Below are positions 2,864 through 63,541 of a stretch of DNA of 64,000 bases, piece by piece. How positions within the stretch are numbered: the stretch's first letter is position 1; every line of letters begins with the position of its first letter. The position numbers and the translations under genes were made by a program. The notes below the pieces were generated by a model. It was not told the DNA's origin. It searched no databases and saw only the letters and a program-made list of their open reading frames with translations. Source of the DNA: a virus; the IMG/VR virus record IMGVR_UViG_3300028045_000008, positions 32,001-96,000 of that record. One strand, written 5' to 3'.

Positions 2864-4132
2864 ATGGCATTACCAACTTTAACACCGGCAAGTCAGATGA
2901 GCAAGGCTATCTTACCACCGACTGGCAATGTGGATGATGTCTCTGTCGCAGTGCCTTACGGCATGTATAATAGCTCCCCCGGTTTTCTATCTGGCGCCGC
3001 AACCCAGGTGGCTTATACCTATAAGAAGCTGGGAGGAGATGTTCTCGATATCGAGCTTAAATCTGCTAATGTCTATGCGAATTACGAAGACGCGGTTCTT
3101 GAGTATAGTTACTTGGTCAATCTTCACCAAACAAAAAACATCCTTTCTGATGTCCTTGGTCAGGCAACTGGAACATTTGATCACAATGGCGAATCTCTAA
3201 CTGGGCCCGAAAATGTAAATTTAAAGTATCCACGCGTTATGTTCGAGTATGCACGCCGCGTCGGCGATGGAATATCTTTTGAAGCAAATGTTGGTGGAAC
3301 TATCCCTATTTACTCCGCTTCTTTTAAACTGGAGCAGGATAGGCAAGACTATGACTTGCAAGCCATAATATCATCTTCCGCCGCGACCGGAGTGGGAGCA
3401 ACCGGAGATCCGGTACCGTATGCCGGCATTGTGGGGGATAAAAGAGTTATCGTAAAGAAGGTTTACTATAAGACGCCTCACGCCATGTGGAGATTCTTTG
3501 GGTATTTCGGAGGACTAAACGTGGTTGGCAATATGAACTACTATGGGCAGTTTACTGATGATTCCTCATTTGAACTGATCCCGACTTGGCAAAACAAGCT
3601 CCAAGCTATGGCTTTCGAGGATAATCTGTGGACAAGGTTATCTCACTATTCTTATGAACTGAGAGATAATAAGCTAAGAATATACCCCGTACCTCAGTTG
3701 CTGAGTACTTATTTATATATGTGGGTTGAATTTTCCGTCATTCCAAATAGTTGGGATGAGCCCAGCAACTACAAATCTGGGACTGATGGAATAAACAACT
3801 TAAATACTATCCCTTTTGATAATCTGCCGTATGAGAATATTAACGCCATTGGAAAGCAGTGGATTCGAAGATTCGCACTCGCTTTGTCCAAGGAAACTCT
3901 TGGTCAGATTAGGGGAAAGTTTCAGACTATTCCCATTCCAGGGGAATCTGTAACTCTTAATGCCTCTGATTTACTATCTCAGGCAAAAGATGAGCAGGAT
4001 AAGCTGAGAACAGAATTGAAAGAGATTATGGACCAGTTAACTTATGTAGAGGTGGCCAAGAGTGATGCAGATAAGGTTGAGTCCGTTGGGAAGATATTTA
4101 AAACTATTCCAAAACTTATTTATCAAGGATAA
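2864..4132 (+). CDS. Neck/head-tail adaptor protein (gp13-like)
   Basis: Lies after the MCP. DVLDIEL near the N-terminus and WIRRFALALSKETLGQIRGKF resemble gp13. Confidence 0.75.
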   Translation: MALPTLTPASQMSKAILPPTGNVDDVSVAVPYGMYNSSPGFLSGAATQVAYTYKKLGGDVLDIELKSANVYANYEDAVLEYSYLVNLHQTKNILSDVLGQATGTFDHNGESLTGPENVNLKYPRVMFEYARRVGDGISFEANVGGTIPIYSASFKLEQDRQDYDLQAIISSSAATGVGATGDPVPYAGIVGDKRVIVKKVYYKTPHAMWRFFGYFGGLNVVGNMNYYGQFTDDSSFELIPTWQNKLQAMAFEDNLWTRLSHYSYELRDNKLRIYPVPQLLSTYLYMWVEFSVIPNSWDEPSNYKSGTDGINNLNTIPFDNLPYENINAIGKQWIRRFALALSKETLGQIRGKFQTIPIPGESVTLNASDLLSQAKDEQDKLRTELKEIMDQLTYVEVAKSDADKVESVGKIFKTIPKLIYQG

Positions 4133-4135
4133 ACT

Positions 4136-5011
4136 ATGAGCAGCGAAAAAGAAAAGTTCCAAGGTTTTCGTCCCTATTTCAAAGAAGAAATACTAGATGA
4201 CAAGCCAGTTCCGCTGAAGGACATCTCGCTGATGCCATCAACTGTAGAGACCATAGATTTGGCTCTTTACGACTGGGTGAACGAAGAAATGGATCTATAC
4301 TGCACAACTAACGAGGGATGGAAAAAAGTGCCAATAATCTGGTCAATGCCAGAACGAGCATATCAGACAAAAAACGATAAAGACCTTAGAAATTCTAATA
4401 ACATCTTCACTTTTCCAGTAATATCAATTGAAAGGACTTCGCTTATAAAAGATCCTGCGATGAAGGGTGTCGCATGGGCCCACCTACCGCAATACAACGA
4501 TCCTAGAGGGGGCGCCATCGAAGTTTCTAGGAGAATCCAGCAAGATAAGACATCCAACTTCGCAAACGCTACGTCACAGAGAAGATTCAAGCAGCAGAAT
4601 TTCCCACTCAATAACAAGAAGGTGGTTTACGAAACTATCACTATGCCAATCCCGACATATGTTGTAGCGACTTATTCTATGGTTATCAGTACTGAATATC
4701 AGCAGCAGATGAACGAGATATTTACTCCATTTCTTACAACTACAGGCCAAATCAATAATTTTTTCATTCACCGTGATGGTCACAAATTTGAAGGGTTCAT
4801 TCAGAATGATCCCGCACTAGATAACACTTTATCAAATCTGGCTGAAGAAGAGAGGAAGTTCAAGACCACTATCGATTTGAAGATACTGGGATACCTGCTG
4901 AGCGCTGGAAAGAATGACGAGCGCCCTAAAGTCACTATTAGGGAGAATGCTGTCGAAGTTAAGATGCCCAGAGAGAGGGTTATATTCGGTGATAAGAAGG
5001 AATATAAATAA
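4136..5011 (+). CDS. Tail completion/sheath stabiliser (gp15-like)
   Basis: KVPIIW...FPVISIER...P-x-YV-x-ATY...QQMNEI pattern, in the neck cluster. Confidence 0.65.
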   Translation: MSSEKEKFQGFRPYFKEEILDDKPVPLKDISLMPSTVETIDLALYDWVNEEMDLYCTTNEGWKKVPIIWSMPERAYQTKNDKDLRNSNNIFTFPVISIERTSLIKDPAMKGVAWAHLPQYNDPRGGAIEVSRRIQQDKTSNFANATSQRRFKQQNFPLNNKKVVYETITMPIPTYVVATYSMVISTEYQQQMNEIFTPFLTTTGQINNFFIHRDGHKFEGFIQNDPALDNTLSNLAEEERKFKTTIDLKILGYLLSAGKNDERPKVTIRENAVEVKMPRERVIFGDKKEYK

Positions 5012-5835
5012 TGGCTGATGACAATAAATGGAGCAAGCCATCAAATCCGCCACCACCGCTTTTTCTTGGAGAGAACGAGAGAAACTTAGTTAAGCAGGTT
5101 AATGATGAGTTAATCGAGCGTGTCATTGGCCAAGCCATTACTTATCTCCCTGTTTCTATGGAAAGAACAAATTTCCACCCACTATATGGTGAAGCAATTG
5201 AAAAGAGTTTCATGCCTCCAGTTAGGGTGTATGCCCTTGTAGAATTTGAGGGAATCACCACCACCACGGATCACTACGGCCTAGATAAGGAGTATCCCAT
5301 AACGGTAAGATTTCACGAGAGGAGACTCCACGAAGATCAGGATCTCTATGTCAGAGAAGGGGATTATGTTCAGTACGGAACATCATTTTTTGAAATTGTG
5401 TCTCTCAAGGAAGATCGTCAGCTTTTCGGACAGGTAGACCATCTTTTCCAGATTGAGGCCAAATGTATAAAAACGAGAAAAGGCCTGATAGACCTGAATG
5501 TTCTTCCATCTGACACCATCGCCGCTATCCTTGAGTCGTCCGAAACATCATCTGAGTCCGAGGAATCTGGTGGATCTGGTGGATCTTCGATCGCCAGGAT
5601 ATGTTATGTCAACGACGCCACGGTGGATATAGCACCGGATACGTCTCTCAACGGCTTTCTGGGAGTGGGAGAGCTATCTACAGTCACCGCCGCAGTATAT
5701 GAGAACGGCATGAGACAAAAGCTAACAGGACTCCCGGCTACCGGAGACTATTATATCGATGATGGCGAATTATATAGCATCGTGGAGATTGAGGAAGGAC
5801 AACGTGTCTTAGTGGAGGTTTTAACTTTAGTATGA
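5011..5835 (+). CDS. Neck/head closure protein (gp14-like) with C-terminal extension
   Basis: ELIERVIGQAITYLP, LYGE, VREGD and FFEIV motifs, then a Ser/Glu/Gly linker and an extra beta-rich domain. Confidence 0.7.
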   Translation: MADDNKWSKPSNPPPPLFLGENERNLVKQVNDELIERVIGQAITYLPVSMERTNFHPLYGEAIEKSFMPPVRVYALVEFEGITTTTDHYGLDKEYPITVRFHERRLHEDQDLYVREGDYVQYGTSFFEIVSLKEDRQLFGQVDHLFQIEAKCIKTRKGLIDLNVLPSDTIAAILESSETSSESEESGGSGGSSIARICYVNDATVDIAPDTSLNGFLGVGELSTVTAAVYENGMRQKLTGLPATGDYYIDDGELYSIVEIEEGQRVLVEVLTLV

Positions 5836-7034
5836 GTACATTTCGCGAGCATAAATCAGTTGCTGACCGCTCTGCTGCAGACCGTAAGCGCCATAAAAGA
5901 AAGATCGAGAAAGCCCTTAAAGAAGGCATCAAGGACGTGGTTGCAGACGAGTCGATTATCGGACAGGACGGAAAAAAGAAAGTAAAAATCCCCGTTAAAG
6001 GAATTAAAGAGTATCAATTCATTTACGGAGAAAACAAGAGTAATAAAAAAGCAGCTTCAGCGGGAGATAAACAGGTAAAAAAAGGGCAAATACTAAGAAA
6101 AAAGCCACAGAAAGGAAAGGGATCTGGAAAGAAGGCGAGTAATGAGCCCGGCGAGGAATACTATGAAGTAGAGATAACGTTGGACGAACTCGCAGAGTAT
6201 TTATTCGAAAACCTAAATTTGCCAGACCTACAAAAAAAGAAATTTAGATTTATCAAGGACAAAAAGCTTAGAAGAAAAGGGTACCGAAAGAAGGGGATCC
6301 GAACGAGACTCTCTAAGAAAGAAACGATAAAAAGAAAAATAAGAAGAAAGAAGCGTGCCATCGCAAGCGGAACTTTTGATCCGAATGGGGAAGAGAGATT
6401 CCCATTTCACCAGGATGACCTAAAATATAAACATATGAAGGAAAAGGACGTTGAAAGCAGTTCTGCTGTAGTCTTTTTCTTGATGGATGTATCAGGCTCT
6501 ATGGATAAACAGAAAAAGTACCTGGCTCGAAGCTTCTACTTCCTGTTATATCAATTTTTGCGGTACAGATATGAGAATATAGAAGTGGTCTTCATATCCC
6601 ACTCAACTGATGCCAAAGAAGTCAGCGAATCAGAGTTTTTTGAAAGAGCAACCTCCGGAGGCACCCTGATGTCTTCTGCTCTTGAGATGGAGAAGGAAAT
6701 TATAGAAAAGAGATATCACCCATCGTCGTGGAACATTTACACCTTTTATTGTGGTGATGGCGAAAACTGGTCGATAGATAACAAGAAATCACTAGACCTC
6801 ATAAAGAGTCTGTCTGAAATTAATCAGATGTTCTGCTATGCTGAGATCAATCCATTTCTGGCTCACGGATCAGATAACGATACATATTTCGCATTCAATA
6901 GTTCTCTGGATCCAAGCAGTATGTGGACTCGTCTGGCCCCACTTGAGAGTGAGGGGATAAAGAGAGTGAAGATCGCCGAGTCTAAGGACATTTGGCCTTC
7001 TTTTAATAAAATATTTGGAGGAGACCTCCCATGA
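5832..7034 (+). CDS. yeaH: YeaH/YhbH (DUF444) family vWA-domain protein
   Basis: DRKRH, VKIPVKGIKEY, YYEVEITLDEL, LNLPDL, MIDAS motif MDVSGSM, SGGT and GDGENW. ATGA overlap with the gp14-like stop. Confidence 0.92.
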   Translation: MSTFREHKSVADRSAADRKRHKRKIEKALKEGIKDVVADESIIGQDGKKKVKIPVKGIKEYQFIYGENKSNKKAASAGDKQVKKGQILRKKPQKGKGSGKKASNEPGEEYYEVEITLDELAEYLFENLNLPDLQKKKFRFIKDKKLRRKGYRKKGIRTRLSKKETIKRKIRRKKRAIASGTFDPNGEERFPFHQDDLKYKHMKEKDVESSSAVVFFLMDVSGSMDKQKKYLARSFYFLLYQFLRYRYENIEVVFISHSTDAKEVSESEFFERATSGGTLMSSALEMEKEIIEKRYHPSSWNIYTFYCGDGENWSIDNKKSLDLIKSLSEINQMFCYAEINPFLAHGSDNDTYFAFNSSLDPSSMWTRLAPLESEGIKRVKIAESKDIWPSFNKIFGGDLP

Positions 7035-8335
7035 AAGACTGGACCATAAAAGAGTTACAAAGATATGACAAGGAAATCTGTAAAATTGCAGAAGAAAAAT
7101 ATGCCCTCGATTGGTTTCCTATAGAATATGAGATTCTAGATTATCATGAGATGCTGGGCGCCATGGCCTACAGTGGCTTGCCAACTCACTATCGTCACTG
7201 GTCATTCGGAAAAAACTTTGAAAGAACTTCTACTCGATACAATCTTGGAATGGAGGGCTTACCCTATGAGATGATCATAAACAGTAATCCAAGCATAGCC
7301 TATCTGATGCTTGAGAATCCAATGAGCATCCATCTGCTGACTATGGCTCACTGTGTTGGTCATTCTGATTTTTTTAAAAATAATCGCATGTTCAAAGAGA
7401 CAGATCCATCAAATATTATATCTAGGTTTAAATCTGCCTCAAAAAGAGTAAGAGATTATATAGAGGATCCCAGCATTGGAATCGATAGAGTGGAGGCGAT
7501 CTTAGACGCTTGCCACTCCATACAGTACCAAGTACCAAGAATTCCAGGCATTGTGAGAAGCCCAGCTAGCTCGAAAGAGGATAAAAACAACGAAGACAAT
7601 AAAAATTTGATTGGCGATTTGTTCCGTTTCGAAAATATTGAAGACTACAACTTGCTTGGTTTTATAAAAAACAATTCTCGCAATCTTGAAGACTGGCAAA
7701 GAGATCTGGTGGGGATGGTAGAGAGAAGGTCCTCGTACTTCATACCACAGGCTAGGACAAAGATTATGAATGAGGGCTGGGCTGTGATGATTCATGAAAA
7801 AATAATGAATGATCTAAACTTGCCGGACAAATATCAAATAGCCTTTTTGAAATCACACAACCAGGTCGTCCGTCCAATGTTGGGTAGGATCAATCCTTAT
7901 CATCTTGGCTACAACATGTTTAAGAAGATAGAGAGGGATCACGGATTCGAAGAGTGCAAGCTGGTTCGCGAGATTCATGACGATGAAGCGTTCATAAGAA
8001 AGTACTTGGATGAGGAAATGTGTAAAGAATTGAATCTCTTTAGCTACTCTTACAATAAGCCAGGTAGAAAATACGCAATTAATGACATTTCTGACAAAGA
8101 AGGGTGGAAAAGCGTGAGGGACGCCCTAATTAGTAATGTGGGACTTAACAGCGTCCCAGTTGTGCGCGTTGATAAATTTAATAAAAAAATGAATATTTTA
8201 TATCTAAAGCATGAACATGATGGTCGCGACTTGGAGATTAGCTACGCAAACAAAGTGTACGATCACATTAAATTTTTGTGGGATGATGATATAATATTTA
8301 CTTCCATTCTGGAAGGTGAACTATGGGAATTTTAA
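7031..8335 (+). CDS. spoVR: SpoVR/YcgB family protein
   Basis: GLPTHYRHWSFGK, YEMIINSNP, AHCVGHSDFFKNN, YFIPQARTKIMNEGWA and NPYHLG. ATGA overlap with yeaH. Confidence 0.95.
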   Translation: MKDWTIKELQRYDKEICKIAEEKYALDWFPIEYEILDYHEMLGAMAYSGLPTHYRHWSFGKNFERTSTRYNLGMEGLPYEMIINSNPSIAYLMLENPMSIHLLTMAHCVGHSDFFKNNRMFKETDPSNIISRFKSASKRVRDYIEDPSIGIDRVEAILDACHSIQYQVPRIPGIVRSPASSKEDKNNEDNKNLIGDLFRFENIEDYNLLGFIKNNSRNLEDWQRDLVGMVERRSSYFIPQARTKIMNEGWAVMIHEKIMNDLNLPDKYQIAFLKSHNQVVRPMLGRINPYHLGYNMFKKIERDHGFEECKLVREIHDDEAFIRKYLDEEMCKELNLFSYSYNKPGRKYAINDISDKEGWKSVRDALISNVGLNSVPVVRVDKFNKKMNILYLKHEHDGRDLEISYANKVYDHIKFLWDDDIIFTSILEGELWEF

Positions 8336-8336
8336 A

Positions 8337-10271
8337 ATGACAAAAACAAATGAATTTTTAGAGATTATTGAGAAGAAGAATAAAGAAAAGAACAAAAGCA
8401 AGTTTTCTGGGACCTTTTCGGAATATTTGAAGCTCGTTGAGGAGGATGGAACCATTTCCATACTAGCTCACAAAAGGCTCTATGAGACCATTAAAGCGGA
8501 AGGCGTGACTAGGATGTCTCCAGAAGACGGCCGATGCGCAAACCTATTCAATGGTGAAAAAATAAGAACTTATGATTATTTTCAATCAAAATTCTTTGGC
8601 ATGGAAAGATCTTTGGCAAAAATTATGAGATATCTACATTCTGCAGCCATGAGGGGAGAGGAGAGCAAGCAAGTTCTTCTTCTGCTAGGCCCAGTCGGCG
8701 CCGGAAAGTCAGCACTCATCGAACACGTTAAACGCGCCCTAGAGTCCGCAGGCTCCTTTTATCAGATCGCAGGCTGTCCCATCCAGGAAGAGCCGCTACA
8801 CTTGATACCGAGAAGTCTCCGAGCAGAATTTAAAGATCTTTATGGTGTCAACGTCGAGGGGGATTTGTGTCCGGTTTGTCGACACAACCTGTTGAACGAA
8901 TATGGCGGAGATTATCTAAGTATGCCCGTAATCGAATCCACCTTCTCTGTGAGGGGTCGCCGCGGCGTAGGCGTTGTTCCTCCCATGGACGCGAACACCC
9001 AAGATACCAGTATCCTGATTGGATCAGAGGATATCTCTAAATTGGATTTGTACCCAGAGGATGATCCCAGGGCCCTGAGTCTAAACGGCGCATTCAATGT
9101 CGGAAATCGTGGTATTGTAGAATTTGTGGAGGTGTTTAAAAATGAAATAGAGTTCCTTCACACTATGATTACGGCAACTCAAGAAAAATCCGTCCCATCA
9201 CCAGGTAAAGGCGCCATGATTTATTTTGACGGTGTAATCCTGGCCCATTGTAACGAAGCTGAGTGGAATAAGTTCAAGTCAGAAAATACAAATGAGGCAA
9301 TTCTTGATAGAATTGTCAGAGTTAACGTTCCTTATTGTCTTGAAATCGGTGAAGAGCAGAAGATATATCAAAAAATGCTTGATGAATCTGATTTCGATGC
9401 ACATATCGCCCCACACACCCTAGAGATAGCGGCAATGTTCGCTGTTTTGTCGCGTCTAAAGATATCTAACAAGGTTGACTCTATTACAAAGATGAAGATT
9501 TATAATGGAGAGGAGATCGTTGAGAAGGGATATATCAAAAAAATAGATATTAACGATCTAAGGGAAGAAGCGAGAGACGAAGGTATGACTGGACTTTCAA
9601 CTAGATTTATCATGAAGTCTATTGATGCCGCTTTAGCCGATTCAGATAAAAACATGGTCACCCCGATATCAATTCGTGATGCGCTCGTGAAACAGGTCAA
9701 GGAGCAGGTAGTTGTCGATGACTTGAGAGAGAAATATCTATCGTTTCTCCAAAAAGAGCTTCACGATGAGTACTTGAGAATACTGGAAAAAGAAATAACA
9801 AAAGCATTTGTTTCAGCATATTCGGAACAGGCAGAATCCCTTTTCGACAATTATCTTGATCATGCGGAGGCATATGTTAACGCAACTAAGGTAAAAGACA
9901 ACGTCACTGGAGAAGAGATGTCTGCAGATGAAGACTTCCTTTCCTCAATCGAAGAACAAATAGGAATCGTTGGATCAGCCAAAGACAACTTCAGGGCAGA
10001 TATCACTGCTTATATGTTCGCAAAACTGAGAAGAAAGGAAAAAATTGACTGGAGAGCTTATGGTCCACTCAAGGAAGCAATCGAAAGTAAGCTGCTGGAT
10101 TCAGTGAGAGATATCTCCAGAATTGTAACCAAGTCGAAATCCAGAGACAATAAACAGAAAAAGAAATATAATGAAATGGTTAAAGTGTTAATCGAGGATC
10201 ACGGATATAACGAAGATTCCGCAAACGAGATTATTAAATATGCCTCAAATAACCTTTGGCGCGATAGCTAA
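8337..10271 (+). CDS. prkA: PrkA/YeaG family AAA+ protein
   Basis: Walker A GPVGAGKS, CPIQEEPL, LCPVC, GAFNVGNRGIVEFVEVFK, NEAILDR, VPYCL and EGMTGLSTRF. ATG at 8337, immediately after the spoVR stop, is preferred over GTG 8316. Confidence 0.95.
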   Translation: MTKTNEFLEIIEKKNKEKNKSKFSGTFSEYLKLVEEDGTISILAHKRLYETIKAEGVTRMSPEDGRCANLFNGEKIRTYDYFQSKFFGMERSLAKIMRYLHSAAMRGEESKQVLLLLGPVGAGKSALIEHVKRALESAGSFYQIAGCPIQEEPLHLIPRSLRAEFKDLYGVNVEGDLCPVCRHNLLNEYGGDYLSMPVIESTFSVRGRRGVGVVPPMDANTQDTSILIGSEDISKLDLYPEDDPRALSLNGAFNVGNRGIVEFVEVFKNEIEFLHTMITATQEKSVPSPGKGAMIYFDGVILAHCNEAEWNKFKSENTNEAILDRIVRVNVPYCLEIGEEQKIYQKMLDESDFDAHIAPHTLEIAAMFAVLSRLKISNKVDSITKMKIYNGEEIVEKGYIKKIDINDLREEARDEGMTGLSTRFIMKSIDAALADSDKNMVTPISIRDALVKQVKEQVVVDDLREKYLSFLQKELHDEYLRILEKEITKAFVSAYSEQAESLFDNYLDHAEAYVNATKVKDNVTGEEMSADEDFLSSIEEQIGIVGSAKDNFRADITAYMFAKLRRKEKIDWRAYGPLKEAIESKLLDSVRDISRIVTKSKSRDNKQKKKYNEMVKVLIEDHGYNEDSANEIIKYASNNLWRDS

Positions 10272-10298: not shown

Positions 10299-10335
10299 AA
10301 GCCCCTTATTTCATTTAGAAAAGGGGCTTCTTTAT
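10299..10335 (+). terminator. Terminator after prkA
   Basis: AAGCCCCTT...AAGGGGCTT inverted repeat followed by CTTTAT. Confidence 0.7.
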
Positions 10336-10468
10336 GTCTTTTCGTGTAGTGACCTCCTATCTACGGGCGAATGAGTGTGCCTGGCATACTTGTTCTTGGT
10401 TTTTTTAAACTTTTGGTTTATCAAAACCAACATATTTCAATTTCAAACATTGAGGAGGAAATAACAAT

Positions 10469-13557: not shown

Positions 13558-16425
13558 ATGTCAGTCAAAAAGTTCAAATTTGTATCGCCCGGCGTATTTT
13601 TAAGCGAAGTTGACAACTCGCAATTACCGGCAGCAGAACGAGAAATCGGCCCACTTGTCGTTGGTCGTACCCAATTTGGCCCAGCCATGAGACCAGTCAC
13701 CGTTCAATCGTTTTCTGAATATGTCGAGACTTTTGGTAATCCGGTACCAGGCGGCGCCGGAGGAGATGTGTGGAGAGATGGGAACCAGCAGGGCCCAACA
13801 TATGCTGCATATGCAGCCCAAGCATATCTGAAGTCTGATGTCGGACCAGTGACAATGATTCGCCTTTTGGGAAGTCAAAATCCAGAGTTTCTTGGAAGTC
13901 CGGTGGCAGCAAACCGCGCATCCGCTGGGTGGGCAACGGAAGGGACAATTTCTCCCGGTAACGACGGTGGGGCCTACGCCCTGGTTGTCTGCAATAGCTC
14001 CTCATCTCCAGCAGGAGTGGCTCAAGATGCTGTCGTCGCGGCAATCTGGTACATGGACAGTGGTTCTATCTCTCTTAGCGGAACACTCGCCGGCCCAGCC
14101 GGCGCCACTGGACAGACAGGGTCATACGCCTTGTTCAAAAACAATGGCTCCTCCTTCAACCCAGAATACACAGCTATAATAAAAGACTCTCTTGGGAATG
14201 TGGTTCACAAAACAGCATTTAATGCTGATCCCGATTCCGCTAAGTATATCAGAAATGTCTTCAATACGAATCCTCAGTTAGTGAACTCTGACGTAGTGGA
14301 CACTACGGTTTTTAATCGCGGTGAAAATCTGTATTGGCTCGGAGAAACTTTCGAGAATACCATGGCAAAGCTCGTTTTGGGCGGAGACATAACAAACCCA
14401 GACGCAATGATTGTAGCCCTCGGAAACGCTGCTGGAACCGTCAGTAGATCTGATATGAAGCAGAATTATCAAGAAGCAGCCACCGGCTGGTTCATCTCGC
14501 AAGATCTAACTTCAGATGCCGCATCTTACGTCGCTTCCAACCAGAACAATCTGTTTAGAATTGTCGCTAGAGACGCTGGAGAGAACGCCCAGAACACTTT
14601 AAAAATATCAGTACAGAATATCAAACCATCTACCAGCTTACTGGATCAATATGGTACTTTCGATGTTGTGGTGAGAAGAGCAAACGACACAGACAACGTT
14701 GTTAAATACGTCGAGAGATATACAAATCTATCTTTGAATCCTTCATCTGAAAACTACATCGGAGTTAAAATTGGTGATAAATATACCATTTATGACGATG
14801 ACCAAAAGAGACTTAGAGAATATGGACAGTACGACAATCAATCGAAATACATTCGAGTAGAAATTAGAGATGATGTTGCCACTGGCCTGACTGATCCAAA
14901 AGCTCTACCATTCGGAGTCAGAGGACCAAAGGTCCCAGCAACAGTAACTATCGAGTCCGGTTCCGTGTCTATCACCACTCCAGGCGATGCAGATTCTATA
15001 TTGGTCACCGGCTCAGTGGCTGCTGACACGAAGGCTTCCCCTACATCGATGTATGACGCAGGCGGATACGCACAACACACATGCTCCATTCAGTGGCCAG
15101 CAGTGACTCTCCGCCTCTCAGCTTCTGACGGCGGCCTTGGAAACCCAACTGACGCATTTTTCGGCGCGCAGTCATCAACCCAGCTTTCCGTCAATGACAA
15201 TCTTAACTTTGATCCAGGCTGGGGAGATCTTCTGAGATCATTTCCTACCGCCCTTGAGGGAACTCTTGTAGATTCGTGGGTATTCTCCCTGGATGAAGTT
15301 GTCACTTCTGGTTCAGCGACAGCCTTCTGGAAAGACGGCTCAAGAGCATCGCTTGATTCGGCCACTGCACAGGGGGATTATACTTCTATTTTGACAGATG
15401 GTTATGACAGCTTTACGGCCCCCCTTTACGATGGGTTTGACGGCCTCAATATCAAGGAGATCGAACCATTTAGAAACAGTGCCATGGGAGCCACTGATAA
15501 CGAGTACTCCAACTACGCATTTAACGCAATTCAACAAGCTCTCAACAGTATTTCCGACCCAGAAGTTGTAGAGTATAATCTACTCGCAGTACCTGGGCTG
15601 ACTAACACAAAATTGACGCAACATATGATAAACATTTGCGAAGACAGAGCAGACGCTCTCGCAGTCGTCGACCTCGAAGATGTGTATGCTCCTTTTACAG
15701 AGAATACTAAGGCATTTCAGGAAAGAGTTAGTACCCCGAATGACGCAGTGAACGCACTTAGACTGAGGCAAATTGATTCTTCTTACGCATGTACCTATTT
15801 CCCATGGGTCCAGGTCCGAGATACTATCGCCTCTAGATTACTCTGGGTCCCGCCTTCCGTAATAGGACTTGGCGTCATGGCGAACTCCGAGGCCAAATCA
15901 GAGGTATGGTTTGCACCTGCAGGATTTAATCGTGGAGGTCTTACAGAGGGCTCTGCCGGATTACCAGTCGCAGGCCTGACATATAAGCTGACCTCGAAAG
16001 ACAGGGATCTTCTTTATGATGCGAGTGTTAATCCAATCGCCTCATTCCCATCGGAAGGCATTGTCGTTTTCGGACAAAAAACTATGCAGGTTAAGAGATC
16101 AGCACTCGATCGAATTAACGTGAGAAGGTTGATGATCTTCATTAAGAAACAGGTATCCAGAATATCTTCTGGCCTCTTGTTTGATCAGAACGTTAGCGTG
16201 ACTTGGGAGAGGTTCCTAAATCAGGTTAATCCGCTGCTGTCAAGTATCCAGTCGAGATTGGGATTGACCGAATTTAAGGTTGTTCTCGATGAGACGACCA
16301 CTACTCCGGACTTGGTAGATCAGAACATCATGTATGCTAAGATATTCTTGAAGCCTGCAAGAGCTATTGAGTTTATCGCAGTTGATTTTGTGATTACGAG
16401 ATCTGGCGCATCTTTTGATGACTAA
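13558..16425 (+). CDS. gp18: Contractile tail sheath protein (gp18-like)
   Basis: FVSPGVFLSEVD, GRTQFGP, YFPWV, WFAPAGFNRG, FGQKT, ALDRINVRRL and KPARAIEFI. Confidence 0.96.
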   Translation: MSVKKFKFVSPGVFLSEVDNSQLPAAEREIGPLVVGRTQFGPAMRPVTVQSFSEYVETFGNPVPGGAGGDVWRDGNQQGPTYAAYAAQAYLKSDVGPVTMIRLLGSQNPEFLGSPVAANRASAGWATEGTISPGNDGGAYALVVCNSSSSPAGVAQDAVVAAIWYMDSGSISLSGTLAGPAGATGQTGSYALFKNNGSSFNPEYTAIIKDSLGNVVHKTAFNADPDSAKYIRNVFNTNPQLVNSDVVDTTVFNRGENLYWLGETFENTMAKLVLGGDITNPDAMIVALGNAAGTVSRSDMKQNYQEAATGWFISQDLTSDAASYVASNQNNLFRIVARDAGENAQNTLKISVQNIKPSTSLLDQYGTFDVVVRRANDTDNVVKYVERYTNLSLNPSSENYIGVKIGDKYTIYDDDQKRLREYGQYDNQSKYIRVEIRDDVATGLTDPKALPFGVRGPKVPATVTIESGSVSITTPGDADSILVTGSVAADTKASPTSMYDAGGYAQHTCSIQWPAVTLRLSASDGGLGNPTDAFFGAQSSTQLSVNDNLNFDPGWGDLLRSFPTALEGTLVDSWVFSLDEVVTSGSATAFWKDGSRASLDSATAQGDYTSILTDGYDSFTAPLYDGFDGLNIKEIEPFRNSAMGATDNEYSNYAFNAIQQALNSISDPEVVEYNLLAVPGLTNTKLTQHMINICEDRADALAVVDLEDVYAPFTENTKAFQERVSTPNDAVNALRLRQIDSSYACTYFPWVQVRDTIASRLLWVPPSVIGLGVMANSEAKSEVWFAPAGFNRGGLTEGSAGLPVAGLTYKLTSKDRDLLYDASVNPIASFPSEGIVVFGQKTMQVKRSALDRINVRRLMIFIKKQVSRISSGLLFDQNVSVTWERFLNQVNPLLSSIQSRLGLTEFKVVLDETTTTPDLVDQNIMYAKIFLKPARAIEFIAVDFVITRSGASFDD

Positions 16426-31823: not shown

Positions 31824-32483
31824 ATGGCAAGTCACAAGAACAAGTTAAAGCATCACAAGCTACTATTCGAATTGAAGTTTCTTTATGCAGATTTGGAATA
31901 CCATACTGCTGCCTTACAAGATGCGGGGAATAACTTCCAGAAGGAAGTGATGAGTAGGATGACAAATCCTTCACCAACCCCACCAGCTTCAAGTGCCCCA
32001 GCACAGCAAGAGTTCTCTCCTGAACAGGACGACGCACATGGGGCAGATGCCGAAAAGAGTGACATATTCCAAATAGATAAGAAGAACATCAATAAGGATG
32101 TTAAAGACTTATATAAGAGAATTGTTACAGTGACCCATCCGGATAAATTGACTTCTCTTTCGGAAGAGGAGAGAAAGCACAAAAGGGCGATCTTTCTAAA
32201 GGCCACATCTGCCGCCGAGGAAAATAGACTATTCGCCCTTCAGCAAATAGCCCTCGATCTTGGTATCGACATCGGATTATTGAGCGATGAACAGGTTAAG
32301 ATCCTTGAGCTAGAATCTGAAAAGATAAAGAAAGAAATAAAGCAAATGACGAATTCTTACGCCTGGGTATGGTACAACGAAGATTCGGAAGAAAGCAAAG
32401 AAGAGTTAATGTCAAGTTACTTTGATATATTAAAGACCTTGGCAGAGAAAGATAAAGAGAAAAATCCGGAGAGTGAAGAGTGA
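31824..32483 (+). CDS. J-domain-containing protein
   Basis: DLYKRIVTVTHPDK contains the HPD motif. Confidence 0.65.
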   Translation: MASHKNKLKHHKLLFELKFLYADLEYHTAALQDAGNNFQKEVMSRMTNPSPTPPASSAPAQQEFSPEQDDAHGADAEKSDIFQIDKKNINKDVKDLYKRIVTVTHPDKLTSLSEEERKHKRAIFLKATSAAEENRLFALQQIALDLGIDIGLLSDEQVKILELESEKIKKEIKQMTNSYAWVWYNEDSEESKEELMSSYFDILKTLAEKDKEKNPESEE

Positions 32484-55303: not shown

Positions 55304-56872
55304 TTGACAAAACATTATGATTCTGGTTCGGCCATGGCCCAGAGAATCCTTGCTGGCGTTAACAAGCTAGCAGACAACGTAGCTTCCACGTTGGGCCCGC
55401 GAGGAAGGAATGTTATCCTGCAAGAGAAGAACAAAAGACCCATCATTACCAAAGACGGCGTTACTGTCGCCAACTTTGTGGATCTAGACGACCCCGTCGA
55501 GAACGCCGCCGCTCAAATAATTAAGCAGGCTGCAGAGCAAACTAACTCTGATGCTGGCGACGGTACCACTACTGCGACAGTCCTCTCCAGGGCGATTTTG
55601 AGCGCGGCACAGAAGTATATTTCATCTGGAGTACCACCGATCGAACTCCAGCGTGGAATTGAGCGAGCCGTCACAGAACTGGCCGTCGTCCTCGACGCTG
55701 CCAGCCGCCCAATTATGTCAGAGGAGGACATCGCTCATGTGGCTTCGATTTCTGCCAACAACGACAAACAGATTGGCCGACTTATAGCCCAGGCTGTATC
55801 TGCAGCGGGAAAGGATGGGGCAATAACTGTCGAAGAAGCTAGATCATTCCAGACCAGCCTGGATCTGGTTGAAGGGTTCAGGATGGATGCTGGCTACGCA
55901 GCAAGTGCTTTCATCACTGATGAGCGCCGCCGCGCCGTCTTATATGAAGATCCTATGATCCTGGTTACAGACGAGAAGCTAGATAATGTCCACGATATTC
56001 TGCCAATTTTAGAACTCGCCGCGCGCGAGGCGCGCCCACTAATCTTTGTCGCCAGCGATGTCGAAGGTCAGGCCCTCGCCGCGATGATCGTCAATGCCTT
56101 AAAGGGTGTCCTTAAGGTCGCAGCAATCAAAGCGCCAAGGTACGGCGAAGAGCGCAAAAATATCTTAAAGGATCTCGCTCTTTCGACGGGCGCAACTTTG
56201 ATCACTCGTTCAAGTGGTAAGAGATTAAAAGACGTCAAACTCATAGATTTTGGAAGCGCCTCTAGGGTAGACATCACAAGGGCCCAGACCACCATCGTCG
56301 GCGGCAATGGTAATCCAGATGCAGTATCAGCAAGAATTGATAGTCTAAGGGAAGAGTTAGTCAAGGAGGATAACCTGCACGAGTGCGAAAAGCTTCAGGA
56401 TAGGGTATCTCGGCTGGCGAGCGGTATCGCTATAATAAGAGTCGGCGCCTCTACAGAGATTGAGATGATAGAGAAGAAGCATCGGATCGAAGACGCACTA
56501 GAAGCAGTTCGCTCCGCCCAAATGGAGGGAATTGTCGAGGGTGGTGGAATCGCGCTCTTACGCGCCTCCTCTACTTTGGTGGTGGAAGTTGACAACGCAG
56601 ATCAGTTGTTAGGGGTAGAAATAATTAAACAAGCCTCACAGGCTCCCCTGCGACAAATGGCGATTAATGCGGGTATTTCTCCGGATATTGTCTGCAAGCT
56701 TGTTCTGGAGTCCGAAACGGGCCACGGTTACGACTTTATGACCGATTCTATCGTGAATATGATGGACTCTGGTATTATCGATCCGGTGAGGGTGACCAAG
56801 ACGGCGCTCCAGAATGCTGCTTCTGTGTCTGGCACGTTAATAACTACAAATTGTGCTGTGATTGAGAGTTAG
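55304..56872 (+). CDS. groEL: Chaperonin GroEL
   Basis: [41 protein letters not shown] and GIIDP. Confidence 0.97.
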
Positions 56873-58456: not shown

Positions 58457-58902
58457 CCCCTACCCGATGGCCAGATATTCGGCATCTTGAGTGGCATCTG
58501 ATCGACGAATATGGCGTCTATGTCTCTTTTGATGATAATGGTACTGACGAATACTGGTTTGACCCAGATAATTTTGAGGAAGATCCCGGCGTCATTTCAA
58601 TCAATTCATCGAATGACGCCGAACACCAGCTACTCGTTTTGTTGCACGAAGCCGGCCATGTCATTCTTCGATCAGATTCGGCGATGTTTGAGAGGAGGTT
58701 TCCAGGCTCTCACAGAGGTACTCTTCATGGCCGCATAGAGATATTGAGAGAGGAGGTATTGGCCTGGGAAGAAGCCCACCAGGTCGCCGATAGGCTTGGA
58801 ATCAAGATAGAAGAGGAAAGATGGAAAGAGAATTATCGAGACGCACTAGAGAAATATGTGAGATGGACGCTGATTGGAGACGAGAATGAACAGACTAACT
58901 AA
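58453..58902 (+). CDS. HExxH metallopeptidase (ImmA/IrrE-like)
   Basis: LLHEAGH...EEVLAW. Confidence 0.65.
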   Translation: MTPTRWPDIRHLEWHLIDEYGVYVSFDDNGTDEYWFDPDNFEEDPGVISINSSNDAEHQLLVLLHEAGHVILRSDSAMFERRFPGSHRGTLHGRIEILREEVLAWEEAHQVADRLGIKIEEERWKENYRDALEKYVRWTLIGDENEQTN

Positions 58903-61540
58903 AATGCTAATCCCGATGGCGGCCATGTTATTCACCGGCTGCATTGAATATGAGGTAGAAGCTATCAAGCCAGAAGTAACACCTGGCCCAACCTACTTTA
59001 CTGATCTTCCAGATGGGAAGTGGTTACCACCACAAAAAGATATGTCAACACCAGATGGACCCGTAGACTTAGGAGATCCACTCCTCCCAGATATCGAGGT
59101 GAGTTTTATACAGTATGACTTCGGGACTCGCGAACTGACTGACCCGCCACTTGATGTAATCCTTGAGATACGGAATGTTGGCGACTATCCTCTTCGTATT
59201 AATCAGGTAGCGCAAACCTCTGTATCGAACTCTTTCATTCTAGGTCCCCTGGTGAGCAATGAGCTATTACCAGGAGGAGTAGAAAGTCTTATAATTAGTT
59301 ATAAGCCGACAATCCATGGCCCAGATGCTAGCATGATAAAGGTGGAGTCGAACGATCCCGATGAACCTTCTGTTATCATTTTTCTTGCGGCGAATGGGGC
59401 CACTCCCAAATTAGAAATCGATCCCTTAGTAATCGATTTTGGTTCAGTAGACCCCATAAACACTCCTGTTAGTATGTCAGTTGATCTGACTAACGTAGGC
59501 GATGGCTTGGTGGAAATAAGCAAAATACAAGAGATTAAATCAAACCTGGACATCAATATTAGCGTTTTTCCCTCAACAAAGTTGACTCCTGGTCAAAAGA
59601 CCACGATGCAATTATCTTATCTTCCGACTGATTCTGGAAAAGATGTAGAGAAGATTGAGATCGTAAGCAACGACCCGGCCAACTCTGTACAGAAAGTTAC
59701 CGCAAAAGCAAAAACCGCTGACCCAGACCTAGAAGCCCCGCCCCTGCTGGACTTCGGCACTATAGAGGTTGGTAGTTCCTTGACCAAGACATTCGATATC
59801 GAGAATGTGGGCACCGGAAAACTACAAATAACTGGCGTATCATTTCCACAGAGCACGGGCACATTCAATATCAAGAAGACCTTCATTGGTGACATTTCGC
59901 CAGGAAACTCAGAGACTTTGGAAGTTGAATATGCCCCTGATGACTACCTCCCAGACATGTCCAGTCTCCAGATAACATCCAATGATCCAGCAGACCCAAC
60001 GTACACTGTCTCTCTTCATGGTGTCGCCGGAATTCCAGAGATAGAAGTAGATCCCCTTGCGGTAGATTTTGGAAACGTCGATGTCCATGGCGCGCCACCA
60101 ATGGAAAAGGTGAAGGTATCTAATGTTGGGACAGGTAACTTGGTTATAGCCCCAGTATCGCTCAAACACAATACCGTCTTCTCTTGGGTTTTACCAACGA
60201 ATTCGTTGCCCCCTGGAGCCTCCGCAAATATAGAAATCTCATATAGTCCGATCGCGTACGCGCTCGACTCTGATGAACTATCGATCGGCTCAAACGACCC
60301 AAACAACTCCCTTGTTCTAGTCCCTGTTATTGGCGCAGGCTCCGCTCCAAAGCTGGAGATTTCTCCAGACCCGTATGATTACGGAACAGAATATCTAGAG
60401 TGCGATCAAGAACAGACAATAGACTTAAAGAATGTCGGTGATGTCGATCTTGAGATCTCTAAAATAGAATACTTTACGTCTTTTCCGAGCCACTTTTCGA
60501 TCGATTATGATCTCGTGCTAAACGGACAATTTCCCTGGACAATACCTCCAGGTTCTCAAAACTCGGTATTCATCGAATATATGCCCTTGTCAGCCACGAC
60601 AGACTCTTCCTTTATCAAGGTCACGTCCGACGATCCGCTTTCTCCAACTAAGATGTCCTATCAATATGGCGAAGGTATTTATTATTCTTCAGTTATGGAC
60701 ACGCATATCCAAGATACGGTCATGATGTCTGACATCCTCTTTGTGATTGATAACTCCTGCTCTATGGGATCCTGGCAATCACATGTAGCAACAAACTTTG
60801 ACTCGTTCATTACGGTGTTTCAGAACTCTGGAGTGGACTATCACATTGCAATTATAACTACGGATAATCCCTCTTTCGTTGGGAGTATTATCGACAACTC
60901 GACTATCGACCCGATCACCGAATTTACAACGCAGGCCCAAGTAGGGACGTGGGGCTCTGGCCAGGAGCGCGGCCTAGATATGGCCTACGAGGCACTAAGC
61001 CCTGGTGGTTCCGCGGCCCCTGGTTCAGCCTTCGAGCGAACTGACGCCAAGATGTCCATCATTTTTGTATCGGATGAACCTGATTACTCATACGAATTGG
61101 TGCAGCCACTTGACTATTCATCATTCTTTAAGGGAGTTAAGATCAGTTCGTCGAGGATTGTTTCTCATTCTGTAAGCGGGGATTGCCCTAGTGGTTGCAC
61201 AATGCCATACATCTCAAATGGGTACACGTATAGCAAAAGCGCCTGGTGCAACTACGACTACATTGATGTGGTCACTGACATGGGCGGCTCACAGTTATCT
61301 TTGTGCGACACCGATTGGGGCCTCAAGATGGAGACTTTGGCCAAAGACTCGATTGTAAAGTCTTCCTTTGAATTATCTGATACCCCCATTGCACCCACAA
61401 TCGAGGTGCTCGTAGATGGGGCAATAACAGGAAATTGGACTTATGACCCTGCTATAAACAGCGTCGTATTCGATCCAGCCAGTATTCCACTGGCAGGAAG
61501 CATCATAGATATCAGTTATAATATTCTAGGAGGTTGCTGA
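58886..61540 (+). CDS. Lipoprotein with four tandem Ig-like (choice-of-anchor D/ASH-type) repeats and a C-terminal vWA domain
   Basis: Lipobox LFTGC; repeated DFG...NVG...SNDP units; MIDAS DILFVIDNSCSM; IIFVSDEPD. Confidence 0.8.
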   Translation: MNRLTKMLIPMAAMLFTGCIEYEVEAIKPEVTPGPTYFTDLPDGKWLPPQKDMSTPDGPVDLGDPLLPDIEVSFIQYDFGTRELTDPPLDVILEIRNVGDYPLRINQVAQTSVSNSFILGPLVSNELLPGGVESLIISYKPTIHGPDASMIKVESNDPDEPSVIIFLAANGATPKLEIDPLVIDFGSVDPINTPVSMSVDLTNVGDGLVEISKIQEIKSNLDINISVFPSTKLTPGQKTTMQLSYLPTDSGKDVEKIEIVSNDPANSVQKVTAKAKTADPDLEAPPLLDFGTIEVGSSLTKTFDIENVGTGKLQITGVSFPQSTGTFNIKKTFIGDISPGNSETLEVEYAPDDYLPDMSSLQITSNDPADPTYTVSLHGVAGIPEIEVDPLAVDFGNVDVHGAPPMEKVKVSNVGTGNLVIAPVSLKHNTVFSWVLPTNSLPPGASANIEISYSPIAYALDSDELSIGSNDPNNSLVLVPVIGAGSAPKLEISPDPYDYGTEYLECDQEQTIDLKNVGDVDLEISKIEYFTSFPSHFSIDYDLVLNGQFPWTIPPGSQNSVFIEYMPLSATTDSSFIKVTSDDPLSPTKMSYQYGEGIYYSSVMDTHIQDTVMMSDILFVIDNSCSMGSWQSHVATNFDSFITVFQNSGVDYHIAIITTDNPSFVGSIIDNSTIDPITEFTTQAQVGTWGSGQERGLDMAYEALSPGGSAAPGSAFERTDAKMSIIFVSDEPDYSYELVQPLDYSSFFKGVKISSSRIVSHSVSGDCPSGCTMPYISNGYTYSKSAWCNYDYIDVVTDMGGSQLSLCDTDWGLKMETLAKDSIVKSSFELSDTPIAPTIEVLVDGAITGNWTYDPAINSVVFDPASIPLAGSIIDISYNILGGC

Positions 61541-62734: not shown

Positions 62735-63541
62735 ATGCGCGCCACAGAGAGATTTTATAGAGTTTTGACAGGGATGATGATGTCTGCCATCTTAATTTTG
62801 GCAGGATGTCAATCGCCGGAGGGTTTGATCGATCAAGTACCAAATCCAGCGCGCAACACGAGCACTGACTTCGCCAGCTATTTATACCAGGACGTCGCTC
62901 GCTACGATTACGAGACTTATGTTCATCGGATATCGAGAACTTCGGCCGTAAGGGTACAGATAAAATATCCTTTCGGAACAATTCAGGGATCTGGCACTTA
63001 TTTCAAGTGGAAAGGCCACACTATGGTTGTGACTGCAGCCCACCTATTCGCATTTGGTGGTGCTTCCGTTCTTTCATCCGAGGCACTAATATCCAGTCCA
63101 GACGAAAGGGTTCTTGGTAGGCTCGTTTATGTAGATAACTACGTCGATGTAGCAATCTTCGCAGTTCCCACACTGGACTCTAGACGTCCAGCTAGGTTCG
63201 ATAGAGCGACGAACTACCCAATTGGCGAAAAAGTTGTGTATTCCGGATTTCCGGGCGCTAACAAACTCCTAACATTCGAAGGCACCCTCACTGGTGATGG
63301 GTTTGATACTGACATCTCTATGCAGTCATTTGCTTGGGGAGGGTCATCTGGCTCTGGAGTCTTTGATTCTAACGGAGACTATGTTGGGATACTGGTTTCC
63401 ATCATGGTCGGGCCTGGACCACAAGGCCCGCAACTCATAGGCTCCGTGGTTTACGTCGCTCCTGCTACTCTGATCGATACGGCACTCTTGCGTCAAAGAT
63501 TAGACAAGCTAGCAAGGATGAAGAACGATGGTTTTCAGTAG
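62735..63541 (+). CDS. Trypsin-like serine protease, predicted lipoprotein
   Basis: Lipobox ILAGC; GSG, TAAH, DVA and GGSSGSG. Confidence 0.85.
   Translation: MRATERFYRVLTGMMMSAILILAGCQSPEGLIDQVPNPARNTSTDFASYLYQDVARYDYETYVHRISRTSAVRVQIKYPFGTIQGSGTYFKWKGHTMVVTAAHLFAFGGASVLSSEALISSPDERVLGRLVYVDNYVDVAIFAVPTLDSRRPARFDRATNYPIGEKVVYSGFPGANKLLTFEGTLTGDGFDTDISMQSFAWGGSSGSGVFDSNGDYVGILVSIMVGPGPQGPQLIGSVVYVAPATLIDTALLRQRLDKLARMKNDGFQ

Follow-up and report, generated by a model that had tools for sequence, protein, structure and literature searches.

A YeaH-SpoVR-PrkA module in the neck operon of a marine T4-like phage, best read as serving protein turnover

Why would a marine T4-like phage keep three genes of a cellular AAA+/vWA module directly behind its neck genes? 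The question is raised by the window, a stretch of 64,000 nucleotides (positions 32,001 to 96,000) of the IMG/VR virus record IMGVR_UViG_3300028045_000008, in which yeaH, spoVR and prkA form the distal half of a six-gene unit that starts with three probable neck/tail-completion genes. Two roles had been put forward in the original prediction: steering of host dormancy or development, and remodelling of proteins in virion assembly. We find that protein turnover, rather than neck assembly or sporulation control, is the best reading of the trio, and we give it roughly even odds (about 0.5). This figure applies jointly to the role and to the best explanation of the genes themselves, namely that they are a phage-adapted copy of the cellular PrkA/YeaG(SpdA)-YeaH-SpoVR module, inherited vertically in a large uncultured clade of marine T4-like myoviruses. 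The unit consists of the following features:

2797-2821, + strand: intrinsic terminator after the major capsid gene (scan: 10 pairs plus a T run), upstream boundary of the unit
2837-2844, + strand: ACTACTTA, candidate late-type promoter element, 26 nt upstream of the first neck gene
2864-4132, + strand: neck/adaptor gene (gp13-like), 422 aa; C-terminal part matches PHROG 211 'head-tail adaptor Ad2' (E 3e-11)
4136-5011, + strand: probable tail-completion gene (gp15-like), 291 aa; Atlas lead only
5011-5835, + strand: probable neck protein (gp14-like), 274 aa; weak Foldseek and Atlas leads
5832-7034, + strand: YeaH/YhbH (DUF444) with vWA-type MIDAS site, 400 aa; PF04285, E 5e-111
7031-8335, + strand: SpoVR/YcgB with HxxxH and NEGWA, zincin-like fold in the model, 434 aa; PF04293, E 1e-117
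8337-10271, + strand: PrkA/YeaG AAA+ ATPase, 644 aa; PF08298 (AAA_PrkA), E 4e-142, and PF06798 (PrkA C-terminal domain), E 1e-78
10299-10329, + strand: terminator-like hairpin (9-bp GC-rich stem) after prkA, with a T-rich tail to 10343, downstream boundary of the unit

ORFs, Pfam matches and translations confirm the three intact genes of the trio and all motifs quoted for them beforehand (DVSGS in YeaH, HCVGH and NEGWA in SpoVR, GPVGAGKS in PrkA). The six genes are tightly packed. A 3-nt gap (4133-4135) separates the first two, a TAATG at 5009-5013 joins the second to the third, and ATGA overlaps lead into yeaH (5832-5835) and from yeaH into spoVR (7031-7034). Between spoVR and prkA there is a 1-nt gap at 8336, with the prkA ATG at 8337 and an alternative in-frame GTG start at 8316. 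The trio is thus complete, co-oriented and chained to the neck genes by exactly the junctions that had been claimed.

The labels of the three upstream genes differ in weight. The gp13-like gene is syntenic in about 19 relatives. For the gp15-like gene, Pfam and PHROG searches gave no match, and its nearest named Atlas clusters carry PF16724 (T4-gp15_tss; scores 0.94 and 0.93, to be taken as a lead only). The name 'gp14-like' for the third gene holds to the extent that its best Foldseek matches are phage neck proteins (Pam3 neck, T4 gp20-gp14-gp13 complexes and lambda neck) and that its Atlas leads are a head-tail adaptor (0.83) and T4_neck (0.76); it is weakened by a poor AF2 model (pLDDT 60) and by E values of only 5e-3 to 5e-2.

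Both regulatory elements named in the original prediction, the late-type motif at 2837 and the terminator at 10299, are present. The terminators at the two ends are also conserved in relatives: that at 2797-2821 is kept in 18 of them with compensatory stem changes, and strong hairpin plus T-run terminators with different stem sequences occur at the position matching 10299-10343 (dG -16.1 kcal/mol and z -3.3 for the hairpin in the window). The position of ACTACTTA is conserved in relatives as well. ACTAHTTA occurs 16 times in the window against 5.4 +/- 2.3 expected. In the whole contig, the shorter CTA[ACT]TTA is found 40 times on the + strand and 10 times on the - strand; 19 of the 40 + strand copies lie in intergenic DNA, which makes up 5.3% of the contig, and copies precede scaffold-like, sheath, tube and other genes by 11-58 nt. 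We call ACTAYTTA 'late' only by this association with structural genes. Within the unit (2864-10271) the + strand holds no further ACTAHTTA and no sigma-70-like site scoring above 10/12. The best one, GAGACA-N17-TATAAT at 10144-10172, falls within the 3' end of prkA, and every other site reaches 9/12, in line with the claim that an internal sigma70 promoter is absent. Since the trio is chained to the neck genes, bounded by terminators and preceded by a motif shared with structural genes, its late co-expression with the neck genes can reasonably be inferred; of the earlier claim, the chained unit behind the motif is what is observed, and the timing follows from it by inference. Sitting in one unit with neck genes, the trio would be made together with the virion proteins.

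It might be argued that such a locus arose by chimeric assembly, or by host DNA having been captured recently and neutrally, given that the G+C content of the trio (0.40-0.41) is slightly below that of its flanks (0.43-0.47). However, the neck-operon layout with identical junctions recurs in about 20 independent contigs from different metagenomes, which shows that it is not a chimera, and the best named cellular PrkA is only 41% identical to that of the window, far from the near-identity to a host chromosome expected of a recent capture. The two evolutionary checks that had been proposed count against it as well: the marine PrkAs form one clade with 100% support, apart from cellular and other phage PrkAs, and dN/dS values of about 0.03-0.05 for the trio indicate strong purifying selection. 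Recurrence, distance to cellular proteins and monophyly together refute a chimera or recent host capture, and we give this explanation practically no chance. PrkA is even more conserved than the capsid protein, being 82-85% identical between contigs with capsid proteins 73-77% and sheath proteins about 50% identical.

Position and conservation would both fit a morphogenetic AAA+/vWA(/peptidase) chaperone acting on neck, head or tail proteins, by remodelling or processing, as virions are assembled. About 20 relatives, like the window, have the trio in one unit with gp13-, gp15- and gp14-like genes, behind a late-type motif; it is as strongly conserved as the core genes; and in Thermus phage Lalka27b it is found between portal/minor-head genes and TerL. 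A MoxR-vWA-peptidase precedent exists in jumbo phages, and MoxR-vWA chaperones have been suggested to help assemble the virions of group 2.2 jumbo phages and of ATV, the Acidianus two-tailed virus (PMC7824862). The PrkA of the window is nonetheless not a MoxR-family ATPase (no MoxR-type Pfam family was reported for it), and the linkage itself dissolves outside the lineage. In most other marine lineages, the more distant T4-like ones, over 90 kb separate the trio from the capsid gene; its neighbours there are small genes and PhoH-, PLP-enzyme-, nucleotidyltransferase- and Cpn60-like genes rather than structural ones. In L007 two additional genes lie between the trio and the neck gene. Linkage to the neck operon is thus a peculiarity of the window's lineage and not a lasting property of the module, and the distance elsewhere argues against a dedicated neck-assembly role such as the original prediction had considered. 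In addition, the cultured phages with the nearest capsid proteins (Flavobacterium phage immuto, RM378 and Mel-JY01) assemble virions without the trio, and the cellular homologues function without any virion. Overall we regard a morphogenetic role as unlikely.

Other marine lineages show how the trio may be controlled away from the neck genes. In 16 of 69 distinct upstream regions it has its own ACTAYTTA, 11-27 nt (in one case 69 nt) before yeaH. Because some other lineages instead have sigma-70-like promoters ahead of the trio, including a perfect TTGACA-N17-TATAAT in L042, expression timing may differ among lineages.

The predicted proteins retain the conserved motifs of their families. The MIDAS of YeaH is complete (DVSGS within FFLMDVSGSM at residue 219, SGGT at 275, GDGEN at 308) and conserved in the marine clade, bacteria and Thermus phages. 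PrkA has Walker A GPVGAGKS at residue 118 and a Walker B-like VEFVEVFK at 261, kept in 68 marine sequences as well as bacterial and Thermus-phage ones; both of its Pfam matches span the full profile length, and it matches the solved structures 9xip/9xiq/9xir (E 6e-97). Its Pfam families at E 0.01 or better are limited to AAA_PrkA, PrkA, AAA_16 and AAA_22, and no Lon proteolytic (S16) domain is among them.

SpoVR carries HCVGH at residue 107 and NEGWA at residue 247, both conserved across lineages. Its AF2 model (pLDDT 83) resembles zincin metallopeptidases over residues 1-337, with VIA-align Z scores of 8-12 in a search of 48,161 chains, values that are moderate for a helical protein. The top of the list consists almost entirely of zincins (DUF885 3o0y, Z 12.1; M3 2h1j, 10.3; M1 3cia, 10.3; M32 3dwc, 9.5; thermolysin, 8.6); Foldseek against the PDB returned nothing significant for the model. 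One helix holds HxxxH and a second one begins with NEGWA, which offers a candidate third metal ligand. All lineages checked have C, V or A, and none has E, at the second position of the HExxH motif. The earlier label 'putative metallopeptidase' consequently stands at the level of the fold and falls short at the catalytic Glu; as HCVGH replaces HExxH, SpoVR may bind metal without cleaving. The lack of this Glu, like that of a Lon-type domain in PrkA, counts against a proteolytic reading.

A different role would be that of a signalling device, with PrkA as a Ser kinase that makes the host enter, or prevents it from entering, a programme of dormancy, stationary phase or sporulation. Historical annotations name PrkA/YeaG a kinase, the bacterial copies are under RpoS and sigma-54 regulation (a sigma-54 regulator adjoins the Sinorhizobium operon), and Price et al. 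proposed a signalling pathway of the three genes (bioRxiv 10.1101/072470). B. subtilis PrkA, however, showed neither kinase activity nor a C-terminal ATP site (PMC9512850). The hosts here are likely marine bacteria that do not form spores; phages of Flavobacterium, Microcystis and Rhodothermus are the closest cultured ones when capsid proteins are compared. If the trio is expressed with the late structural genes, a lytic T4-like cycle would also leave it little time to switch host development. Steering of sporulation or dormancy, the other role first suggested, thus finds no support here, and signalling appears improbable to us.

AAA+/vWA systems are, as a general background, common in biological-conflict loci, and some lineages drive the trio from the sigma-70-like, presumably early, promoters described above. 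A targeted takeover or counter-defence device, degrading or inactivating specific host proteins (defence systems, transcription factors) instead of turning over protein in bulk, would account for both. We nevertheless give it little chance: a PADLOC search with the trio and the three neck genes matched no family at E 0.01 or better, a diversifying region is absent, and the extreme conservation is unlike that of arms-race genes.

Turnover of host protein, the reading we prefer, draws on what is known of the cellular proteins. E. coli YeaG (SpdA) is required for a largely nonspecific, starvation-induced bulk proteolysis that supplies amino acids and ATP (PNAS 2026, PMC13684143); YeaH and YcgB are absent from the main text of that paper. 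For PrkA of B. subtilis, an ATP-dependent protease activity has been found (PMC9512850), and cofitness among the three genes is tight in bacteria (bioRxiv 10.1101/072470). In the phage, PrkA would be the AAA+ motor, YeaH its vWA/MIDAS partner or adaptor and SpoVR a zincin-like component, which together might carry out broad ATP-dependent turnover or remodelling of cytoplasmic, mainly host, proteins. In this way the phage probably gains raw material by degrading host proteins late in infection. Just as host DNA is recycled by T4-like phages, protein could yield amino acids and energy for making virions in nutrient-poor cells. A more specific version, which we offer only tentatively, sees a split ATP-dependent degradation machine (PrkA as unfoldase, YeaH as receptor/adaptor, SpoVR as variant zincin peptidase) that is switched on late throughout the clade to dismantle the host proteome.

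Widely distributed in cells, the YeaG/YeaH/YcgB module has only just been tied to bulk proteolysis in starvation. That a very abundant marine T4-like clade keeps a compact trio under strong purifying selection, and apparently under late-gene control, suggests that phages may pay for virion synthesis in nutrient-poor cells by recycling the proteome. If true, this would be a new class of auxiliary function, affecting how infected ocean cells process nitrogen and carbon. The degradation machine, if real, would be the protein counterpart of phage-directed host DNA recycling, and the phage copies would offer a compact, self-contained route to the biochemistry of cellular SpdA/YeaH/YcgB. The phage versions and the zincin-like SpoVR fold are concrete handles for biochemistry. 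The trio's place behind the neck genes is particular to the lineage and no evidence of a role in neck assembly.

Compared with the cellular module (yeaGH plus ycgB in E. coli, prkA-yhbH plus spoVR in B. subtilis, single operons in Thermomicrobium and Sinorhizobium), the window has all three Pfam families at full length in adjacent, co-oriented genes, with the Walker A and B-like, MIDAS and SpoVR HxxxH/NEGxA motifs conserved. By identity its PrkA is closer to the Bacillota/Thermomicrobium type (40-41%) than to proteobacterial YeaG (33%). The marine phage PrkAs stand apart as a clade, 41% identical at most to named cellular proteins, and the trio belongs to a lytic-type T4-like phage, in a neck operon with a late-type motif, unlike the RpoS or sigma-54 control in cells. 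As had been noted, the order YeaH-SpoVR-PrkA also departs from the prkA-first order (PrkA-YeaH-SpoVR in the cellular examples checked). It is found in 81 of 81 marine viral loci examined; gene order is an operon habit and not a defining trait of the PrkA/YeaG family.

MoxR AAA+-vWA(-metallopeptidase) systems follow the same logic of an AAA+ ATPase, a vWA/MIDAS partner and a zincin-type domain. In the window the ATPase is of the AAA_PrkA family instead, and the zincin-like part is a separate protein without the HExxH glutamate.

Among phages the trio is no novelty. In the Thermus phages phiYS40/TMA, phiLo, MN1 and Lalka it has been annotated as 'SpoVR' and 'serine kinase' since 2006, in the same permuted vWA/YeaH-SpoVR-PrkA order, with an additional gene between spoVR and prkA in phiYS40. 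The Lalka27b copy lies in the morphogenesis region, and this placement up to the terminase gene, as well as the neck operon here, would suit a morphogenetic role too. The Thermus phage PrkAs are a separate lineage near Alicyclobacillus-type PrkA (an AU test rejects a single clade, p 0.0002), with identities to the window of 33% for PrkA and 23% for SpoVR. Complete trios also occur in jumbo or huge phages (Ralstonia phage RsoM2USA and the uncultured LR745206, LR756504 and LR756511), where the cellular order PrkA-YeaH-SpoVR is kept. Because the PrkAs of RsoM2USA, LR745206 and LR756504 nest within the proteobacterial YeaG clade, these three look like separate, more recent captures. PHROGs holds families for all three proteins. 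With similar phage trios on record, the window is a good example rather than a new kind of system.

The trio of yeaH, spoVR and prkA was found intact in the window, directly behind three putative neck genes and in a unit bounded by terminators on both sides. The source is a single 114,371-bp IMG/VR virus record, estimated to be 63% complete, of which the window covers bases 32001-96000; the plus strand carries nearly all genes. The relevant features are as follows:

1058-2764, T4-type major capsid protein (PF07068)
2797-2821, strong terminator ending the capsid gene, upstream boundary of the unit
2837-2844, ACTACTTA, located after the capsid-gene terminator and followed by the first neck gene with its Shine-Dalgarno sequence
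2864-4132, first neck gene, PHROG 211 'head-tail adaptor Ad2' (E 3e-11)
4136-5011, second neck gene, no Pfam or PHROG match; closest named Atlas clusters carry T4-gp15_tss (0.94)
5011-5835, third neck gene, poor AF2 model (pLDDT 60); top Foldseek matches nearly all phage neck proteins
5832-7034, plus strand, YeaH/DUF444 (DUF444 E 5e-111), with DVSGS, SGGT and GDGEN forming a full MIDAS site
7031-8335, plus strand, SpoVR (E 1e-117), with HCVGH and NEGWA
8337-10271, plus strand, PrkA (AAA_PrkA 4e-142, PrkA C-terminal domain 1e-78), with GPVGAGKS; translation may alternatively begin at an in-frame GTG at 8316 (ORF 8316/8337-10271)
10299-10343, 9-bp GC-rich hairpin with T-rich tail 3' of prkA (dG -16.1 kcal/mol, z -3.3)
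13558-16425, long tail sheath

The original prediction of three intact genes with these motifs is borne out by the ORFs, the Pfam-type matches and the translations. The predicted chaining also holds: ATGA overlaps are present at 5832-5835 and 7031-7034, a TAATG joins the second and third neck genes at 5009-5013, and one base separates the spoVR stop from the prkA ATG at 8337. Given the PHROG, Atlas and Foldseek matches of the three upstream genes, 'neck / tail-completion operon' is a fair description, but 'gp14-like' for 5011-5835 is putative, as the T4 gp20-gp14-gp13 complexes among its top matches reach E-values of only 5e-3 to 5e-2 with a low-confidence model. Both the motif at 2837 and the terminator at 10299 are present. 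As for internal promoters, the plus strand of the unit contains no ACTAHTTA, and the best sigma-70-like site on this strand (10/12) lies in the 3' end of prkA, at 10144-10172. A PADLOC search yielded no match.

The motif itself is not restricted to the neck operon. Across the contig as a whole, CTA[ACT]TTA has 40 plus-strand and 10 minus-strand matches, and 19 of the 40 plus-strand copies fall within intergenic DNA (5.3% of the contig). Copies are located 11-58 nt upstream of the scaffold-like gene, the neck operon, the sheath, the tube and other genes. Within the window ACTAHTTA is observed 16 times where 5.4 +/- 2.3 are expected, and ACTAYTTA recurs upstream of structural and other genes at 13-20, 13050, 13510, 16439, 18160, 20936, 51120, 53909 and 62228. 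Because of this strand and intergenic bias we consider ACTAYTTA, judged by its association with genes, a candidate late-promoter element of this phage group.

Scanning IMG/VR with PrkA yielded 165 relatives, of which the best 80 are 62-84% identical. The order YeaH-SpoVR-PrkA is found in all of these 80, and in one further locus reached via a sister sequence. The complete arrangement of capsid gene, three neck genes, trio and sheath recurs in about 20 contigs from different metagenomes, which rules out an assembly chimera. The architecture between capsid gene and first neck gene is the same in 18 of them: the terminator stems vary yet stay paired, and are followed by a T run, GAA-ACTA(C/T/A)TTA and a Shine-Dalgarno sequence. 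A hairpin and T-run terminator is likewise present 3' of prkA in the syntenic relatives, with differing stem sequences. Between contigs, PrkA is 82-85% identical where capsid proteins are 73-77% and sheaths approximately 50% identical. Selection on the trio is strongly purifying, with approximate median dN/dS values of 0.047, 0.049 and 0.034 for the three genes (few pairs, dS near 1.1), and the catalytic-type motifs are retained throughout the lineages compared.

Near-identity to a host chromosome, which would have pointed to a recent acquisition, was not observed: the best named cellular PrkA matches are Thermomicrobium (41%) and Bacillus (40%), with proteobacterial YeaG at approximately 33%. 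In a tree of 122 PrkA sequences, including the bacterial copies, the marine phage PrkAs form one separate clade with 100% support whose sisters are uncultured only. Recent or neutral capture is thereby excluded. The PrkAs of Thermus phages group apart with full support, close to an Alicyclobacillus-type sequence, and those of RsoM2USA and two huge uncultured phages are nested in proteobacterial YeaG. As predicted, the gene order differs from the prkA-first arrangement: the bacteria and jumbo phages checked show PrkA-YeaH-SpoVR, whereas four types of Thermus phages share YeaH-SpoVR-PrkA with all marine loci. An AU test rejected uniting the Thermus and marine groups (lnL difference 213, p 0.0002; group named after tree inspection), and therefore the permuted order occurs in two separate PrkA lineages rather than having a single origin.

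Several uncultured PrkA homologues (P0128, P0129, P0140 and P0149; 35-41% identical) are 1000-1570 aa long, their AAA_PrkA domain being interrupted near profile positions 195 and 245 by one or two inteins that contain LAGLIDADG endonucleases; in P0149 an additional intein lies close to the Walker A region. A single-protein PrkA scan of GTDB gave five matches in all, the MAG contigs L101-L105 (PrkA 63-79% identical), labelled Luteolibacter, Halobacteriovorax, Bdellovibrionota, Proteobacteria and Anaerolineaceae. A Gp23 capsid gene is also present in the Halobacteriovorax MAG, so the five are probably binned phage contigs and unreliable as host evidence.

The trio stays next to neck genes in the approximately 20 syntenic contigs, but not in more distant marine contigs (PrkA 62-78% identical), where tblastn and phmmer locate the trio without adjoining neck genes. 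In five such records a Gp23-type capsid protein is present each time, more than 90 kb from the trio. Among the neighbours here are genes for a PIN-PhoH protein, a PLP-dependent enzyme and a nucleotidyltransferase. Very often there is also a 440-460-aa gene that weakly resembles the Cpn60-like gene of this phage. The latter encodes a Cpn60/GroEL-like protein at 55304-56872 of the window (PF00118, E 1e-63). In many other marine lineages the 440-460-aa gene lies directly 3' of prkA (phmmer E 8e-6 to 8e-14 against the Cpn60-like protein, no Pfam match); its product may represent a degenerate chaperonin associated with the trio. Examples from four of these loci are:

L040, 11947-13272
L063, 11942-13309
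L075, 12289-13647
L100, 11543-12931

Upstream of yeaH we surveyed 69 distinct regions. The gene abuts its upstream neighbour in 29, has its own ACTAYTTA in 16 (15 at 11-27 nt and one at 69 nt before yeaH) and a sigma-70-like promoter of at least 10/12 in five, including a perfect TTGACA-N17-TATAAT in locus L042; 20 of the 69 have neither of these elements. Two extra genes (284 and 1717 aa) part neck gene and yeaH in locus L007. In L042 and L043, and also in L028, L033, L037 and L041, the trio stands alone with a sigma-70-type promoter and its own strong terminator. In these lineages the trio is divergent from the neighbouring gene, so its timing may differ from that in late-motif lineages. In L027, L029, L030, L057 and L059 the DNA just upstream of the trio ends tRNA-like (…GGTTCGAATCC…GCCA), which suggests an adjacent tRNA gene. 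Given these variable upstream regions and neighbours, the trio reads as a self-contained cassette, mostly, though not invariably, under the late-type motif, and neck-gene attachment as one of several, lineage-specific arrangements.

By capsid protein the closest cultured phages are Flavobacterium phage immuto (49%), Microcystis phage Mel-JY01 and Rhodothermus phage RM378, all absent from the PrkA matches; megablast of the region against GenBank phages gave no match. A part in neck or head assembly, as originally proposed, is doubtful in view of the variable genomic position of the trio and of close relatives that do without it. Elsewhere in the window, a region that another early note labels a lipoprotein island encodes a large protein whose four Ig domains are HYDIN/VesB-like (58874-61540) and a trypsin-like peptidase (62735-63541).

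PrkA has a homologue with solved structures (9xip, 9xiq, 9xir; E 6e-97), and the domain search found no Lon-type protease domain in PrkA itself; YeaH and SpoVR have no solved-structure match. For the SpoVR AF2 model (pLDDT 83) Foldseek gave no match in the PDB, and the zincin fold was revealed solely by an exhaustive VIA-align search, whose top list consists nearly entirely of zincin metallopeptidases over residues 1-337 (Z 12.1 for DUF885, 9.5-10.3 for M3, M1, M32 and M30, 8.6 for thermolysin). HCVGH lies in helix 98-117 and NEGWA at the start of helix 244-261, placed as the zinc ligands are in gluzincins; NEGxA recalls the WLNEGFA zinc-ligand motif of M1 peptidases. The general-base Glu of HExxH is absent from SpoVR in every lineage checked, and peptidase activity of the modelled protein is therefore uncertain.

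In six bacteria yeaG, yeaH and ycgB show tight cofitness (Price et al., 10.1101/072470). B. subtilis PrkA binds and hydrolyses ATP via Walker A, showed no kinase activity and degraded casein in an ATP-dependent manner (PMC9512850). Starved E. coli needs YeaG, now called SpdA, for an induced, largely nonspecific degradation of cytoplasmic proteins, from which the cell gains amino acids and ATP to make new proteins (PMC13684143, PNAS October 2026). We favour, at a probability of about 0.5, ATP-driven protein turnover or remodelling as the role of the trio: made together with the virion proteins, it would release amino acids and energy from host proteins at the time of greatest demand. Kinase or dormancy signalling, the latter part of the original prediction, seems improbable, as little speaks for it, and the same scarcity of support makes a targeted counter-defence a rather remote explanation.

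Annotations of phage copies of the trio go back to the phiYS40 genome. PHROGs has one family per protein, all three of unknown function, and SpoVR and PrkA appear in a table of the RsoM2USA paper but are not discussed there as a module. Our literature search found no paper treating the trio as a phage module or describing the marine clade, and nothing relevant on an auxiliary-gene role of the trio in marine viruses. Summarizing, the trio in the window is a well-supported case of a known module, and is of value as a pointer to what that module does rather than as a new system.
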